From assembly GCF_041886205.1 (NCBI RefSeq), contig NZ_CP169029.1: a DNA stretch of 64,000 nucleotides. The stretch is one strand, 5' to 3'. Position numbers and translations under genes: made by a program. Under the pieces are notes generated by a model. That model was not told where the DNA came from, did not search any database, and saw nothing but the letters and a program-made list of their open reading frames with translations. Shown one piece after another: positions 938 to 60,511 of the stretch; position 1 is the stretch's first letter, and each line of letters begins with the position of its first letter. The stretch is from Escherichia coli. Its GTDB lineage: Bacteria > Pseudomonadota > Gammaproteobacteria > Enterobacterales > Enterobacteriaceae.

Positions 938-1015
938 CTGAAATGATAAATGGCCTGCGGTTCTCACGCAGGTCAAATCTGGTATCTGCGTAAGCTAACA
1001 AACTTGTTTATCAAC

Positions 1016-1047
1016 AATTTCAGGCCATCCGAAGATGGCCTGAAATT
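1016..1047. terminator. Perfect 14-bp-stem hairpin between convergent RtcB-like ORF and mngB; possible bidirectional terminator
   Basis: aatttcaggccatc-cgaa-gatggcctgaaatt seen directly; flanking U-tracts are weak on both strands. Confidence 0.4.
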
Positions 1048-1081
1048 ATTGCCCCCCTTAGATACACTTTTAGCGCAATAA

Positions 1082-3715
1082 TCAGCCAAGGCGGTAGATA
1101 AATGTCCGTGACTGCCCCGGTAAAAATGCCCCCAGTTCCTTTAAATTATCTCTTTCCGCTGTGCTGATGCTTTCATCCATCATCGTTTGCGTACATGAAA
1201 TCACCTCACGACTGAACGCGACAGTTGCCTCACAGGTTGTCGATTCTGCCGGATTAAACAGTCGCAATACCACTTCTTGCCGGTCTTCCGCTTTTTTAAG
1301 AGCGCTAATCAGGCATCCCACAGGAGGCATTTTCAGCAAGCTATGGCTTTCCGGCACATTGAATCCGGCTTTATTTAACTTCATCGCATCCCATGGGATT
1401 TTGTTGTAACACTGTACTGGCGTCAGCCATGCACGCGCCTGCTGGGCTACACCGGCGGTCGCAGGCGTACCTGTATAACTAAATAAGCTCAGACGGCAGC
1501 TAAAGGAGCCACGTAATTGTGAATCGGGCACCGGCATTTTTATGCCTGAAGGACGTCCAGGCCTTAAGAGCAGATCTTCTTTGCCCAGTAAGCCCACGCC
1601 ACGCAGCAACGTAATGGCAAAGGTTTTCTTCTCTTCACCGATGACTTCGAATTCACGTAGCCCTTCGCTAAAGACAGCCAGACCGTTACGCCCTTCCTGT
1701 AAGGCAGCATAGTTGAGCATATTCCATACCGGAACAGGCGCTTCTTTCCAGCCTTCTTGTTGCCAGACATCCATCGCACTGTCGCTCACCGGGCGCGTTA
1801 GTGAACCAAACTGGGTATCGGCCAGAACACTGTCGGTGTTAAAAGGTGTAGGGACCAGGACGCGAAGGCGATGATCGTCAGCCTGGTTATCAAGGTTGAT
1901 ATCCACATCAATACGTCTGCTGTTATCACTCAGAGTGACAACCAACTCCACCCCTACTCTGCCAGTGGATTGCCGGGCGCTGCGTTCTGACAAATTGAGC
2001 GGCACTGCCATGTCATAGCGGATAACAGCCCTGCTCTGCCAGGCTTCATGAATAATATCGCATTGCGGTTTCGCGTTCGCCGCGGTAATTACCCACTCTT
2101 CTTTTGCGGGTGAATAGTCATATTCATCACCATCATCAGAGCTTTCTTCAATTTGCAACACCCGGTCATAGCGCACACCGCTATCTTTATCTACCAGTTG
2201 TAGCGTTCCATCCTCATTGAGCGCAATTTGCCAGAAAGCATTTTCCAGTATCCCTTCAGCGTTACTTTTTGCCGCAATCACGTTGCCAGGCTGATTCGCT
2301 TCGATATAAAGCGTGCGATAGCCCATAGAAGGGACAATCTGGTTGATCTGTATATCAAACTCCATAAAGGGATCGTAATTACCGTAATGAACGATTTGCC
2401 GATCGATTAGGCCAGGATCGATCTCACGGGCATGGCGAATAAAATACGGCACAGGATGACCGCGATCGTCCCGTAAATTAAACTGGCTGGCGCGCAGGCG
2501 CACAGTGGTGTTAATCACTTCTTCTCGCGGCCAGGGCATCAGGTTAAACAGGACGAGTTTGTCGGCGTCGCTCTGCGGCATGTTGTCGGCGATTTTACGC
2601 ATATAGAAACGAATCAGATTATCCGCCATGTCTTCAGCCAGTTCGAAGCGGGCGACGATTTCGCGATGAACTTTGTCACTGCAACAACAACCGATGCTGT
2701 CGTGGGCATGATTTTTTAAGATCTCTTTCCACATTTTCTCCAGCAAGCCGTGGTGGTATTCAAAACCCAACGTCCAGGCCAGCGTTGCCAGCGGTTCCAG
2801 CAGATTAACAATCTTATTTTCAATACGTGCGTGGGCAACTTTGATATCCATGCGCGTGGAACCGATGGTGCGATGTACGCGCATATATTTGCCATCAATA
2901 AATTCACCTTTCAGGGTCGCCAGACTTTCACGCTGCGCTTCAATCTGCTCGAATACCTCTTCAAAGCGGCTCATCACAAACTTTCGTTGAGGATAAATTT
3001 CGCGAAGTTTCTCCATCACTTCGAAGATATTTTGCTGCAATGGCATCTGGTCATGACCATTCGGCAGCAAAATCTCTTTGGTTACTGACGCTTTTTCCAG
3101 CACGTCAAAATAGCTGTCGAGGCGTTTACGTAATCCGTCTTCGTCCGCAGGTAAGTACTTACCGATGGCATAACCCAACGGCAGCACCTGCGCCGTCACT
3201 TCGCTACCGTCACTGCTTTGCCACAAAAACTCGGTTTTATCCGTACCGTGGCGCTCAGAACATCCGCGCCAGAACATGGTGCGGGTAATGCCAAATCCAT
3301 TGTAGATATGCGGCAGTTGCCCGGACATGCCAAAGGAATCCGGTAAATAACCTATTTTCATCGGCTCGCCAAACGCGAGGCAGTCACGCATTCCGTACAT
3401 CAGATTACGGACGATGGATTCCGCAGAAACAATCGTGGTATCGGTCTGGGTATACCAAGGGCCGATAATCAACTTGCCGGCTTCTACCAGTTTCTTCACG
3501 CGGTCTTTGTTTTCCGGTTTCACCGCGAAATAATCTTCGAGGATCGCCGTTTGCCCGTCGAGTACGTAATATTTGTATTCGTTGTCCTGTTCCAGTCGGC
3601 ACAGGATCTCTTCCATATTATTGACCAGCAGAATGCGTGACTCTTCGGTGGTGAAATACCACTCCCGATCCCAATGCATATGCGGGGTGATGTGAACGCG
3701 AGATACCGCTTTCAT
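1082..3715 (-). CDS. mngB: Mannosylglycerate hydrolase (GH38 alpha-mannosidase)
   Basis: 877-aa ORF; N-terminus [21 protein letters not shown] typical of GH38; length and position next to mngA match E. coli MngB. Confidence 0.95.
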
Positions 3716-3732
3716 CGTCGTTTCCTTTTTGT

Positions 3733-5709
3733 TTATGGCATTACGCCATCAGTCAGATAGTTGCCATGCTTAACCGCGTGACGCCGCCAGATCAGGAGAA
3801 TTGCAGTCGAGATTGCAGCCCCCACCAATGCCGCACCAAACCAGCCAATTGCCGCCATAACACCGCCCGCGCCATTATCATGAAGTAAAAAGAGCGAGAA
3901 AATGCCGGCACCGGGTGTCGAAAGGCCGATATTCATCGCGCCGACGATAGCGCCCGTTACCATAGAGCCCAGCACAAACGAACCAATAACCCGCAGCGGA
4001 TCTTCAATCGCCATCGGGATAGCCCCTTCGGTAATACCTGCCAGCCCTAACAGCCAGGTGGATTTCCCGGTCTCAATTTCAAACTCTTTAAACAGGCGCG
4101 GTGCGAGCATCGTGGAAGCGGTTACGGTAAATGCCGAAACCATTTTGACGGAGGCGAAAATGGCATACGGGCCGTAGACGCCGTTCGCCATTGCGCCCAG
4201 GCAGAATGCATAAGCGGCTTTGTTCACTGGCCCTCCAAGGTCAAAGGAACACATAAAACCGAGAATGGCACCCAGCAACAGCGCGTTACTTCCTGACAGA
4301 CCGTTCAGCCAGGCGGTAAGCGAGTTATTGATCCAGGCGACAGGTTCCCCCACCACAAACAGCATCAGACTGCCCGCTCCCAATGTACCGAGCACCGGGT
4401 AGAGATAAAAAGTCAGGAAACCATTGAATTTACTGCTAAGACGCAAGTAATTTTTCACCCAGCGCATCAAGTAACCGGCTATCAATCCGCCAACGACCGC
4501 GCCGAGAAACCCGGAGCCGATCATGTTGGCGGCAAGTCCAGCCGCAAAGCCTGGCGCTAACGCCGGTTTATCTGCCAGTGAATAGGCGGTGTAGGCTGCC
4601 AGCACCGGTACCATCAAAATCCCGAGCATCCCGCCGCCCAGCTTGCGGTACATCCACAGCCAGGAGTTTTCTTCATTAAAGAGATCTTGTAGCCCGAAGA
4701 TTTGCGACAGTAATACCGCAACCGCCAGCACCGTGCCCCCCGCGACAATCAACGGCACGGCGAAAGAGATCCCGCTCAACAGTGCCTGTTTCAGCTCCGT
4801 TTTGACACTTTTCACCGGTTGCGTGTCTTGCTGTACGGTACGCGTCTCATCGCTACGCTTGAGGGTAAGCGCTTGTTGAATCAACGCTTCTGCATGGCGA
4901 ATCGGCTCGGCAACAGGCACTGAAAGCGCGGGAATGCCATTAAAACGCTCACTCTCCTTGATGGCGACTTCAGCCGCAAAAATACAGGCGGTTGCACTAT
5001 TGAGTTGATCCGCCGTTAAACGCCCTTCAATGCCGTTAGCGCCTTGTTTTTCAACGTAAACATTTACGCCGAGTTTGCGTCCGGCTTTTTCCAGATATTC
5101 CGCAGCCATATAGGTGTGAGCAATACCCGCCGGACAGGCCGTTACGCAGACGATAGTTGGCGCGTTGGAAAAAGAGGCAGAAGGTTGCGAGCCTCCCTTG
5201 TCATCCAGCGCCGAGAGCAATTCATCAGGCGTCGTCGCCGACTGTATACGCGCCCGAATCTCATCATCCGCAAGGCGCGTGGTCAGCGCTGTCAGCAGTT
5301 GCATATGCGTAGTACCCGCTTCATTGGGGGGAATCGCCAGCAACACCACTAAATCAACTGCTTCCGGGCCATCAACGCCTTCCCACTGAAGCGGCTCGCT
5401 GAGTGTGGCGACCGCAAACGCCGCTTCTTTTACCGCAGCAGTTTTGCCATGCGGCACAGCCAACCCTTCACCTAAGGCGGTCGGGCCAAGGCTTTCACGG
5501 CGATACACTTCTTCCAGAAATTGCTCAGTACTGGAAATTTTCCCCAGAGCAGCAAGACGTTGAGTCAACGCGTGGATGGCCTCTTCACGGCTGTTAAAGC
5601 GCGCATTCAGACACAACGCATCGCGGTGGGTCAGAGTCGTCAGATTCATAATGATCCTCACTTGATCGTTTTTATAGTCGCGCCAGTGTGCCCGATAAAA
5701 CAATACCAT
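3733..5709 (-). CDS. mngA: PTS 2-O-alpha-mannosyl-D-glycerate-specific EIIABC component
   Basis: 658-aa ORF, fructose-like PTS permease with many TM segments; directly upstream of mngB. Confidence 0.95.
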
Positions 5710-5817
5710 TATGTGATCAATTTCACTTGATTGAAATTATTTGTATTGTATTTGTATTATTTACAGGATGAATTTATCGGGCATAATGGCTAAATTCGTA
5801 TTAATGAGATACTAAAA

Positions 5818-6540
5818 ATGGGACACAAGCCCTTATACCGGCAGATTGCCGATCGCATTCGTGAGCAAATTGCGCGTGGGGAGCTTAAACCTGGCGATGC
5901 GTTACCCACTGAATCAGCACTACAAAGAGAGTTTGGCGTCAGCCGGGTTACGGTGCGTCAGGCTTTGCGCCAGTTAGTCGAGCAACAGATCCTCGAAAGC
6001 ATTCAGGGCAGCGGGACTTACGTCAAAGAAGAGCGGGTCAATTACGATATTTTTCAGTTAACCAGTTTTGATGAAAAACTGTCGGACCGTCACGTCGATA
6101 CACACAGTGAAGTCCTGATATTTGAAGTGATTCCGGCTGACGATTTTCTTCAGCAACAGCTACAAATCATCGCGCAGGATCGTGTGTGGCATGTGAAGCG
6201 CGTGCGCTATCGCAAGCAAAAGCCAATGGCGCTGGAAGAAACCTGGATGCCGCTTGCGTTGTTCCCGGATCTCACCTGGCAGGTCATGGAAAATTCGAAA
6301 TATCACTTTATTGAAGAAGTGAAGAAAATGGTTATCGATCGTAGCGAACAGGAAATCATTCCTCTGATGCCAACCGAAGAGATGAGCCGTCTGCTTAATA
6401 TCAGCCAGACTAAGCCGATTCTTGAAAAAGTATCGCGGGGATATTTAATTGATGGTCGGGTGTTTGAATATAGCCGCAACGCTTTTAATACCGATGACTA
6501 TAAATTTACCCTGATAGCGCAGCGAAAATCATCGCGATAA
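5818..6540 (+). CDS. mngR: GntR/HutC-family transcriptional repressor MngR (FarR)
   Basis: 240-aa ORF with N-terminal GntR-type HTH (LPTESALQREFGVSRVTVRQAL); divergent from mngA. Confidence 0.95.
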   Translation: MGHKPLYRQIADRIREQIARGELKPGDALPTESALQREFGVSRVTVRQALRQLVEQQILESIQGSGTYVKEERVNYDIFQLTSFDEKLSDRHVDTHSEVLIFEVIPADDFLQQQLQIIAQDRVWHVKRVRYRKQKPMALEETWMPLALFPDLTWQVMENSKYHFIEEVKKMVIDRSEQEIIPLMPTEEMSRLLNISQTKPILEKVSRGYLIDGRVFEYSRNAFNTDDYKFTLIAQRKSSR

Positions 6541-6544
6541 GCAC

Positions 6545-6643
6545 AAAAAAGGCCATCATACGATGGCCAACCATGTCGAAACCGACAGCCCTTCGCCATT
6601 CCTGTAGAGGGAAGCGGCGAGGGCTATTTCTTATTACAAGTAT
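6545..6643 (-). ncRNA. sdhX: SdhX (RybD) sRNA derived from the sucD 3'UTR, ending in an intrinsic terminator
   Basis: Region immediately 3' of the sucD stop on the minus strand ends in hairpin ggccatc-atac-gatggcc (6551..6568) followed by a U6 tract on the minus strand; position matches the known 3'UTR sRNA. Exact 5' end is not determinable from sequence. Confidence 0.55.
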
Positions 6644-7513
6644 TTATTTCAGAACAGTTTTCAGTGCTTCACCGATATCCGCCAGGCTGCGAACGGTTTT
6701 CACGCCTGCGGCTTCCAGAGCAGCGAATTTCTCATCCGCAGTCCCTTTACCACCGGCAATGATGGCACCCGCGTGGCCCATACGTTTGCCTTTCGGCGCA
6801 GTCACACCAGCGATGTAACCTACAACTGGCTTGGTAACGTGCTCTTTGATGTACGCAGCAGCTTCTTCTTCTGCGCTACCGCCGATCTCACCGATCATCA
6901 CGATCGCTTCGGTCTGCGGATCTTTTTCGAACATTTCGAGGATGTCGATGAAGTTAGCGCCAGGGATCGGGTCACCGCCGATACCGACACAGGTCGACTG
7001 ACCGAAACCGTAATCCGTGGTCTGTTTAACCGCTTCATAGGTCAGTGTACCGGAACGGGAAACGATACCCACTTTACCCGGTTTGTGAATGTGACCCGGC
7101 TGGATACCGATTTTGCATTCACCCGGAGTGATAACGCCCGGGCAGTTCGGGCCGATCATACGAACGCCGGCTTCGTCCAGTTTCACTTTCACAGTCAGCA
7201 TATCCAGCGTCGGGATGCCTTCAGTGATGGTGATAATCAGTTTGATGCCTGCATCAATAGCTTCCAGAATGGAGTCTTTGCAGAACGGTGCTGGTACGTA
7301 GATAACAGAAGCGGTAGCACCAGTAGCAGCAACAGCTTCACGCACGGTGTTGAACACCGGCAGGCCGAGGTGGGTAGTACCGCCTTTACCTGGGGTTACG
7401 CCGCCAACCATTTTAGTGCCGTATGCAATGGCCTGTTCTGAGTGGAAAGTCCCCTGGCTACCGGTAAAGCCCTGGCAGATAACCTTGGTGTTTTTATCAA
7501 TTAAAATGGACAT
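6644..7513 (-). CDS. sucD: Succinyl-CoA synthetase alpha subunit
   Basis: 289-aa [27 protein letters not shown]...; 1-nt overlap with sucC stop. Confidence 0.97.
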
Positions 7514-8679
7514 TATTTCCCCTCCACTGCGGCAACAACCTGCTGAGCTGCATCCGTCAGACCTTTTGCTGCAATAATATTCAGGCCGCTGTCAGCCAGT
7601 TTCTTCGCGCCGAGTTCGGCGTTGTTACCTTCCAGACGTACCACGACCGGTACGTTAACACCCACTTCCGCTACCGCGCCGATGATACCGTCAGCGATCA
7701 GGTCGCAACGAACGATACCGCCGAAGATGTTAACCAGAACGGCTTTCACTTTGTCGTCAGAGAGGATGATTTTGAACGCTTCGGTTACACGTTCTTTGGT
7801 TGCGCCGCCGCCAACGTCCAGGAAGTTAGCCGGTTCGCCGCCGTGCAGTTTAACGATGTCCATCGTACCCATCGCCAGACCTGCGCCGTTAACCATACAA
7901 CCGATGTTACCGTCCAGCGCAACGTAGTTCAGTTCCCACTGTGCAGCCTGTGCTTCACGCGGATCTTCCTGCGACTGGTCACGCATTTCGCGCAGATCAG
8001 GCTGGCGGAACAGTGCGTTGCCATCAGCGCCCAGTTTGCCGTCGAGGCAAATCAGATCGCCCTGTTTGGTGATGACCAGCGGGTTGATTTCGATCAGCGC
8101 CAGGTCGCGCTCCAGGAAAATGGTCGCCAGGCCCATGAAGATTTTGGTGAACTGCTGAACCAGTTTACCTTCCAGACCCAGTTTGAACGCCAGCTCGCGT
8201 CCCTGATACGGCATCGGGCCAGTCAGCGGATCAAGCGCAACTTTGTGGATCAGGTGCGGAGTTTCTTCCGCCACTTTTTCGATTTCCACGCCGCCTTCGG
8301 TGGAGGCCATAAAGACCACGCGACGTGAACTACGGTCTACAACGGCACCGAGATACAGCTCTTTAGCGATATCGGTCGCCGCTTCAACCAGAATCTGGTT
8401 AACCGGTTGGCCATTGGCATCTGTTTGATACGTTACCAGACGTTTGCCCAGCCAGTTTTCTGCAAAAGCACGGATGTCTTCTTTGCTGTTTACAACTTTC
8501 ACACCGCCCGCTTTACCGCGGCCACCAGCGTGAACCTGACATTTCACTACCCACGGACCGGCACCGATTTTTGAAGCGGCTTCTTCTGCTTCGCGCGGAG
8601 TAGTACAGGCATAACCCACCGGTGCTGGTAAGCCATAGCGGGCAAAAAGTTGTTTTGCCTGATATTCATGTAAGTTCAT
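7513..8679 (-). CDS. sucC: Succinyl-CoA synthetase beta subunit
   Basis: 388-aa [21 protein letters not shown]... ATP-grasp. Confidence 0.97.
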
Positions 8680-8761: not shown

Positions 8762-8935
8762 CCCGTAGGCCTGATAAGACGCGTTAAGCGTCGCATCAGG
8801 CATCGCTTGTCGGCTGCGGCGCGAGCGCCTTATCCGACCTACATTGGTGCTCCCCGTAGGCCTGATAAGACGCGTAAGCGTCGCATCAGGCTTCAATTGC
8901 CGGAGAAGGCGATAATGCCTTATCCGGTCTATAGT
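8762..8935. repeat. REP/BIME cluster in sucB-sucC intergenic region
   Basis: Multiple copies of the REP palindrome motif (gcctgataagacgcg...cgtcgcatcaggc; gccttatccg.cctac) seen directly. Confidence 0.7.
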
Positions 8936-13166: not shown

Positions 13167-13287
13167 CGCCTGATGCGCTGCGCTTATCAGGCCTACGGGT
13201 AATGGCTTGTAGGCCGGATAAGGCGTTCACGCCGCATCCGGCACTGGTTGCCTGATGCGACGCTTGCGCGTCTTATCAGGCCTACGG
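13167..13287. repeat. REP/BIME cluster in sdhB-sucA intergenic region
   Basis: REP palindrome motifs (gccggataaggcgttcacgccgcatccggc, cttatcaggcctac) seen directly. Confidence 0.7.
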
Positions 13288-30639: not shown

Positions 30640-30776
30640 GATGCCTGATGCGACGCTTGACGCGTCTTATCAGGCCTACGTATTTCCTGCAATTTATTGA
30701 ATTTGCACAAATTTGTAGGCTGGATAAGGCGTTCACGCCGCATCCGGCATCTGGGCTCGATTGCCTGACGCGTCTG
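30640..30776. repeat. REP/BIME cluster between convergent dtpD and phr
   Basis: REP motifs (tgcctgatgcgacgc...cgtcttatcaggcctac; gccggatgcggcgtgaacgccttatcc on the opposite strand) seen directly. Confidence 0.7.
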
Positions 30777-41741: not shown

Positions 41742-41850
41742 TTTTTGCCGGATGCGGCGTGAACGCCTTATCCGGCCTACAAAATCGCGCAAATTCAATA
41801 TATTGCACCATCTTTGTAGGCCTGATAAGCGTAGCGCATCAGGCAGTCAT
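41742..41850. repeat. REP/BIME cluster between pgm and ybfP
   Basis: gccggatgcggcgtgaacgccttatccggcctac ... gtaggcctgataagcgtagcgcatcaggc seen directly. Confidence 0.7.
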
Positions 41851-59808: not shown

Positions 59809-59885
59809 GGCTACGTAGCTCAGTTGGTTAGAGCACATCACTCATAATGATGGGGTCACAGGTTCGAATCCCGTCGTAGCCACCA
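59809..59885 (+). tRNA. metT: tRNA-Met (elongator, anticodon CAU)
   Basis: 77-nt cloverleaf ending CCA; anticodon loop ctCATaa read directly. Confidence 0.95.
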
Positions 59886-59893
59886 TCTTTTTT

Positions 59894-59978
59894 GCGGGAG
59901 TGGCGAAATTGGTAGACGCACCAGATTTAGGTTCTGGCGCCGCAAGGTGTGCGAGTTCAAGTCTCGCCTCCCGCACCA
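59894..59978 (+). tRNA. leuW: tRNA-Leu (anticodon UAG)
   Basis: 85-nt class II tRNA with long variable arm, ending CCA; anticodon loop ttTAGgt. Confidence 0.95.
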
Positions 59979-60001
59979 TTCACCAGAAAGCGTTGTACGG
60001 A

Positions 60002-60076
60002 TGGGGTATCGCCAAGCGGTAAGGCACCGGTTTTTGATACCGGCATTCCCTGGTTCGAATCCAGGTACCCCAGCCA
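60002..60076 (+). tRNA. glnU: tRNA-Gln (anticodon UUG)
   Basis: 75-nt tRNA tggggtatcgccaagcggtaagg...cca; anticodon loop ttTTGat. Confidence 0.95.
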
Positions 60077-60110
60077 TCTTCTTCGAGTAAGCGGTTCACC
60101 GCCCGGTTAT

Positions 60111-60185
60111 TGGGGTATCGCCAAGCGGTAAGGCACCGGTTTTTGATACCGGCATTCCCTGGTTCGAATCCAGGTACCCCAGCCA
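60111..60185 (+). tRNA. glnW: tRNA-Gln (anticodon UUG), identical copy
   Basis: Identical to the glnU copy, including its 5' leader. Confidence 0.95.
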
Positions 60186-60200
60186 TCGAAGAAACAATCT

Positions 60201-60277
60201 GGCTACGTAGCTCAGTTGGTTAGAGCACATCACTCATAATGATGGGGTCACAGGTTCGAATCCCGTCGTAGCCACCA
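60201..60277 (+). tRNA. metU: tRNA-Met (elongator, anticodon CAU), second copy
   Basis: Identical to the metT copy. Confidence 0.95.
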
Positions 60278-60324
60278 AATTCTGAATGTGTCGAATATGT
60301 TCGGCAAATTCAAAACCAATTTGT

Positions 60325-60399
60325 TGGGGTATCGCCAAGCGGTAAGGCACCGGATTCTGATTCCGGCATTCCGAGGTTCGAATCCTCGTACCCCAGCCA
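60325..60399 (+). tRNA. glnV: tRNA-Gln (anticodon CUG)
   Basis: 75-nt tRNA; anticodon loop ttCTGat. Confidence 0.95.
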
Positions 60400-60436
60400 A
60401 TTTATTCAAGACGCTTACCTTGTAAGTGCACCCAGT

Positions 60437-60511
60437 TGGGGTATCGCCAAGCGGTAAGGCACCGGATTCTGATTCCGGCATTCCGAGGTTCGAATCCTCG
60501 TACCCCAGCCA
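60437..60511 (+). tRNA. glnX: tRNA-Gln (anticodon CUG), identical copy
   Basis: Identical to the glnV copy. Confidence 0.95.

Follow-up and report, generated by a model that had tools for sequence, protein, structure and literature searches.

INTRODUCTION

The closest described counterpart of the RNA studied here is SdhX of Escherichia coli K-12 (RybD, b4764), which is encoded directly after the sucD stop codon. Our sequence agrees with the K-12 RNA in locus, length, seed, terminator and the two bases C34 and G62, and it differs only at positions 4-5, where K-12 has UC and our sequence has CU. SdhX has been detected on published Northern blots, UUU has been described as its RNase E processing site, and compensatory mutagenesis in E. 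coli showed that G62 matters for fdoG and C34 for katG (PMC6393394); forms of about 101 and about 38 nt are given in a review (PMC9438474). In Salmonella, SdhX1 and SdhX2 (87 and 38 nt; Miyakoshi et al. 2018/2019, PMC6393394) come from the same parent operon, carry the seed UUCGACAUGGU next to the terminator, target ackA and share the RNase E biogenesis. Unlike the E. coli type, however, the Salmonella RNA has a non-homologous region upstream of the seed, without the katG-targeting hairpin and without the G62 that acts on fdoG (PMC6393394).

CpxQ, SroC, NarS and MalH are also sRNAs from mRNA 3′UTRs, and like SdhX they have a seed just upstream of the terminator of the parent mRNA, are released by RNase E and depend on Hfq (PMC9438474). 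Their parent genes, seeds and targets are nevertheless different from those of SdhX, and there is no sequence relationship between them and SdhX.

A different kind of comparison is offered by the terminators between convergent genes. In SEnd-seq work, such intrinsic terminators were reportedly found to be bidirectional, with an A tract on one side of the hairpin, a U tract on the other and a U tail on both strands. The junction at the end of SdhX resembles them in having a single hairpin between two convergent stop codons, but here the place of the second tract is held by a conserved seed.

RESULTS AND DISCUSSION

Position and identity of sdhX

All positions given here refer to the window, i.e. 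the whole 64-kb stretch of E. coli DNA that was analysed. On the minus strand, a 289-aa ORF occupies 6644..7513, with its stop codon at 6644-6646 in the ORF list; K-12 and strain ET201 both annotate it as sucD, and it is the last gene of sdhCDAB-sucABCD, the parent mRNA. On the plus strand, a 240-aa ORF at 5818..6540 is annotated as mngR in the same two strains; this convergent neighbour, with its stop codon at 6538-6540, lies outside the sRNA. Between the two convergent stop codons lies a spacer of 103 nt (6541..6643). The first 17.8 kb of the window aligns collinearly with strain ET201, at 7 mismatches, and the annotation of that strain, when transferred, puts sdhC, sdhD, sdhA, sdhB, sucA, sucB (odhB), sucC and sucD all on the minus strand, the whole operon being upstream of the spacer.

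K-12 MG1655 (NC_000913.3) annotates the ncRNA sdhX (b4764) at 765050..765150, between sucD and mngR. When the minus strand of the window was read from 6643 to 6543, 99 of 101 nt were identical to this ncRNA, the sole differences being positions 4-5 after the sucD stop codon, and 6543..6643 (minus, 101 nt) is thus the equivalent of the long form of K-12 SdhX. The sequence-only reading of this DNA had taken the stretch for SdhX, the 3′UTR of sdhCDAB-sucABCD, which is borne out by the K-12 annotation, by this identity and by the presence of the operon on the same strand. We also searched Rfam 15, which gave no SdhX match, either at the gathering threshold over the whole window or with E-values up to 10 between 6400 and 6800; in the latter interval only sub-threshold matches to isrD and MicA, which are terminator look-alikes, were obtained. 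The SdhX family seems to be absent from Rfam 15, and because there is no model in it, family membership rests on synteny, sequence identity and such features as the seed next to the terminator and the residues G62 and C34.

We are therefore highly confident that 6543-6643 (minus) is sdhX, the Hfq-dependent sRNA formerly called RybD, which forms the 3′ untranslated end of the ~10-kb sdhCDAB-sucABCD transcript, with the processing and target mechanism described below. SdhX is already known and well studied, and its literature is consistent with the identification made here (PMC6393394, PMC9438474, PMC8175672). As a regulator attached to the tail of an operon for central metabolism, it is a textbook example, and its occurrence at this locus only confirms the annotation. 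A plus-strand ORF of 81 aa at 6573-6818, which overlaps the locus, was taken as a chance ORF, being antisense to sucD and having no ribosome-binding site.

The terminator and the RNA 3′ end

A terminator scan of 5600-7600 returned exactly one site, on the minus strand, with the stem at 6568..6551 followed by TTTTTTGTGC. This Rho-independent hairpin (6551..6568, minus) has a stem of 7 bp, of which 5 are G-C, and a loop of 4 nt (GUAU), and the U6 tail, seen in both the sequence and the scan, occupies 6545..6550 (minus); the GC hairpin and six U residues which had been proposed to end the transcript were accordingly found. By itself such a pattern is not above chance, as shuffled sequences had a mean of 2.1 sites compared with the one site found here. 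The 101-nt RNA as a whole folds at -41.3 kcal/mol (z = -4.7), and 0 of 200 shuffles were as good. The observation made in the sequence-only reading and its coordinates are therefore correct.

In published K-12 Term-seq data, each of the three growth conditions shows a very strong RNA 3′ end at 765148(+). Through the sdhX alignment, this base is equivalent to window 6545, which is the last U of U6 and also the base at which the sequence-only reading had started the feature, and the mapping of 3′ ends which had been suggested as a check is thus in agreement for the SdhX strand.

The same hairpin was further said to lie directly after the mngR stop codon on the plus strand, and this holds, as the hairpin starts 10 nt past that stop codon and the U tract is 4 nt from it. 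However, the tail score on the plus strand (AACCAUGUCGAAACC) is 0.11, versus 4.73 on the minus strand, and past the hairpin the plus strand reads GGCC-AACCAUG without any U tract. For this reason the hairpin is a one-way terminator, and a further reason is that the conserved seed occupies the flank on which the second U tract of a bidirectional terminator would lie. A bidirectional terminator shared by mngR and sucD was rejected as a candidate, given the plus-strand tail score and the lack of an A tract on one side with a U tract on the other.

Transcription from the convergent gene mngR

The sequence-only reading had added that convergent mngR transcription might hamper the production of SdhX. 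In its fuller form, this idea takes the hairpin to be shared or bidirectional and has mngR transcription measurably disturb the output of the sRNA, either by collision of RNA polymerases or by an mngR 3′UTR antisense to SdhX. The geometry described above fits this idea, and convergent MngR homologues are found at the same position in Kluyvera and in two Enterobacter species. Moreover, as no U tract follows the hairpin on the plus strand, an mngR transcript which is not stopped must cross the SdhX seed, to which it would be perfectly complementary. Nevertheless, we consider such interference to be very unlikely: the tail scores are not those of a bidirectional terminator, and the curated K-12 Term-seq list has no mngR-strand 3′ end at 7650xx-7651xx, where mngR is possibly below the expression threshold of the list, while the SdhX-strand end has very high read scores.

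Genomes without mngR are also against interference. In about 28% of 5,426 complete E. coli genomes mngR is missing beside sdhX, with homology ending exactly at window 6538-6545, and sdhX in these genomes is intact and near-identical. In the other genera which have mngR at this place, no plus-strand terminator is conserved beyond SdhX. Among the papers of the library searched in full text, none linked SdhX with mngR or mngR with sucD, and the SMRT-Cappable-seq supplements do not mention mngR or sucD and have no coordinates near 765 kb.

In the Term-seq data of Adams et al. 2021, the only nearby feature besides the SdhX 3′ end is a Rho termination region at 765604(+), which falls within mngR but on the opposite strand, the one that encodes SdhX. 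This position is about window 6089 (minus strand), downstream of the SdhX terminator. The SdhX strand is therefore transcribed within mngR, perhaps by polymerases that have passed the SdhX terminator or else from a start site which is not mapped. Such a region would be consistent with sdh-suc transcripts extending into mngR, rather than the other way round. Thus, interference of mngR with SdhX has the geometry in its favour and is otherwise unsupported, and it cannot be a general feature, as sdhX is unchanged in the genomes lacking mngR.

The nearest candidate stop for mngR transcripts is a hypothetical one of moderate quality on the plus strand (6588..6635), consisting of a hairpin (6588-6624), which is the SdhX 5′ stem-loop read in reverse complement, and UAUUUCUUAUU after it. 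The energy of this predicted hairpin is -21.8 to -23.4 kcal/mol and its tail score is 2.1-2.8. It was rejected as an mngR terminator, as its tail is interrupted and the K-12 Term-seq list has no 3′ end there; in addition, E. albertii keeps the hairpin without having mngR, and Kluyvera and Enterobacter with mngR at this place have no equivalent of it.

In a wider version of the idea, the seed sits where a second U tract would be, and any convergent neighbour at this junction, whether mngR as in the window, RtcB as in other E. coli or the different genes of E. albertii, would consequently have to be transcribed across the seed. Its 3′UTR would then be perfectly antisense to SdhX, and derepression of mngR might lead to titration or loss of stability of the sRNA. 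The probability that we give to this version is very small. If it were true, the use of mannosylglycerate would be linked to acetate metabolism and TCA-cycle control through titration of SdhX, and any effect of neighbour read-through on SdhX, if there were one, would add a minor new level to a circuit that is already known.

The variable region next to sdhX

Beyond the SdhX U tract, the E. coli genomes differ. In O157:H7, the junction has a remnant of the RtcB gene (its last few dozen bases) beside a LysR/cobO/fumarate-hydratase block, and in strains 1428 and CE10 the place of mngR is taken by an intact RtcB gene in convergent orientation. In these two strains the junction reads RtcB-stop, GGCAT, A6 and then the SdhX hairpin. 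The genes mngR-mngA-mngB (window 938-6544) behave like an indel bounded by the RtcB stop codon (935-937) on one side and the SdhX U tract on the other. The U tract and terminator of SdhX form the fixed edge of this variable region, where some genomes have the mngRAB cassette and others lack it.

The hairpin GGCCATC-N4-GATGGCC has exactly two copies in the 64-kb window, one at 1023-1040, in the convergent spacer between RtcB and mngB, and the other at 6551-6568, which is the SdhX terminator; the mngRAB cassette therefore has a copy at either edge. The sequences around the two copies are different, and junctions without the cassette bypass the first copy. The two copies may reflect chance or may be a trace of the arrival of the cassette.

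Conservation of the seed and terminator

The seed UUCGACAUGGU is at 6570..6580 (minus), single-stranded and directly 5′ of the terminator hairpin. In the comparison with published SdhX which had been suggested for this locus, the seed was identical and both C34 and G62 were present. To follow it across species without reference to the sRNA sequence, the SucD protein was used to collect 80 loci from species-representative genomes, and the 3′UTR was read after each sucD stop codon. In Enterobacteriaceae, the module of seed and terminator was found in Escherichia albertii, Citrobacter, Enterobacter, Kluyvera, Pluralibacter, Phytobacter, Mangrovibacter, Cedecea and Superficieibacter. A modified module, with small variants, was found in Serratia, Dickeya, Rahnella and Hafnia. 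Among the 80 SucD loci, the module was not found in Pantoea, Erwinia, Photorhabdus, Tatumella or Rosenbergiella, or at any locus outside Enterobacterales.

We aligned 23 sequences, i.e. the window and 22 other Enterobacterales species carrying the seed. The seed core GACAU and the ends of the stem are invariant in this alignment and the seed flanks are nearly so, while neither the length nor the sequence of the 3′UTR upstream of the seed is kept among the species. This answers in the affirmative the question, raised by the sequence-only reading, of whether a seed next to the terminator is conserved: the core is constant in all 23 sequences and the rest of the UTR is divergent. The 7-bp stem is 100% paired across the species, with compensatory changes at 4 of the 7 pairs, and its covariation score was reached by 0 of 500 shuffles; when the register of the stem was slid, pairing dropped to 22-62%.

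Pairing of the seed with ackA was computed on the K-12 gene, as the ackA of this strain is outside the window. Against ackA CCAUGUCGAG, the seed forms 10 contiguous bp from -2 to +8, by which the start codon is covered. The duplex energy is modestly better than that of shuffled controls (31 of 1000 shuffles were as good), and the modest margin is due to the shortness of the seed. Folding of the full-length SdhX-ackA duplex was uninformative, as it ignores intramolecular structure, and the seed-only duplex was used instead. The predicted complementarity between seed and ackA agrees with the published repression of acetate kinase.

From these data, it can also be judged whether the stretch is an operon terminator and 3′UTR only, with no function in trans, to which we assign a negligible probability. 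A hairpin and a U run are indeed expected at the end of any operon, and the simple pattern, as stated above, is not enriched over shuffles; but an 11-nt single-stranded sequence directly 5′ of the hairpin is kept across genera, in contrast to the rest of the UTR, and is complementary to the start codon region of ackA. Furthermore, published compensatory mutations show regulation of ackA, fdoG and katG (PMC6393394), and the terminator-only reading is already refuted by this K-12 and Salmonella genetics.

SdhX forms and the proposed mechanism

The long form begins with a 5′ stem-loop (6587..6625, minus), which is present in the minimum-free-energy fold and carries in its apical part CUUCCCUCU with C34, the published katG-pairing region. 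Compared with E. albertii, this stem-loop has one compensatory change, C28-G47 to U-A. The short form is placed at 6545..6582 (minus, 38 nt) and is equivalent to SdhX2, its 5′ end being taken from the Salmonella and E. coli literature. The E. coli-specific determinants G62 and C34 are both intact in the window sequence, and the two bases by which SdhX here departs from K-12 (positions 4-5) fall in the unstructured 5′ end and in none of the published pairing regions.

In the mechanism which we favour for SdhX as a 3′UTR-derived sRNA, transcription of sdhCDAB-sucABCD would end at the intrinsic terminator formed by the hairpin and U6, giving a 3′ end at 6545, and RNase E would then release the ~101-nt and ~38-nt forms, as reported in the literature. 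The hairpin and U run would at the same time serve as the 3′ module that Hfq binds. The seed would pair across the ackA start codon, with acetate kinase being repressed according to published work, and this repression would tie acetate and acetyl-phosphate metabolism to the expression of the TCA cycle. According to the same literature, G62 would extend pairing to fdoG, and the upstream CUUCCCUCU element with C34 would target katG in E. coli. In this scheme, the position, identity, fold, covariation, seed conservation, ackA complementarity and agreement with the 3′-end map come directly from the present analysis, and RNase E processing, Hfq binding and target repression are derived from the literature.

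That the sRNA is instead an independent gene of the MicL type, transcribed from a promoter within sucD, and is not processed from the operon mRNA, is scarcely credible: SdhX and SucD levels are not always parallel (PMC6393394) and there is one weak promoter-like match about 420 nt upstream (minus 7089..7062, 9/12 matches), but the number of such matches equals the shuffle expectation (3 found versus a mean of 2.4), published work has no transcription start site or conserved promoter, and both SdhX species are lost in an RNase E temperature-sensitive mutant (PMC6393394).

Variation of sdhX within E. coli

A 401-nt probe around the spacer matched 5,425 of the 5,426 complete E. coli genomes. The SdhX element is at least 95% identical across these 5,425 genomes, except for 7 records at 80-90%, and SdhX is thus essentially fixed in E. 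coli. The variants that occur include a base of the terminator loop, a C-to-U change in the stem which keeps a G-U pair (strain CE10), and two changes in the 5′ hairpin (ST131).

At SdhX positions 4-5 (window 6640 and 6639), CU is found here, UC in K-12 and most E. coli, and CC in E. albertii. The CU allele is rare, with only 14 of the 5,426 genomes being at least 99% identical over the surrounding 401 nt.

The ST131-type genomes carry U36-to-C, inside the katG-pairing CUUCCCUCU, together with U46-to-G; these positions are equivalent to window 6608 and 6598 (locus ~3031-3041). The two changes might alter the strength of katG regulation in that lineage.

In E. coli FDAARGOS_944, an IS1 element is inserted inside the SdhX seed (locus 3229-4001; window ~6571-6579), with a 9-bp target duplication, CCATGTCGA. 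The element parts the body of the 3′UTR from the terminator and is a natural disruption of sdhX, and the duplicated seed core still precedes the terminator beyond IS1.

Other RNA features of the window

Two matches to Rfam naRNA4 (CssrE), which are REP-type repeats, were found at 8768-8839 (-) and 13212-13282 (+), in the sucB-sucC and sdhB-sucA spacers of the operon. Matches to the ES036 (CssrF) sRNA at 30672-30714 (-) and 41781-41823 (+), and a cluster of seven tRNA genes at 59809-60508 (+), are unrelated to SdhX.
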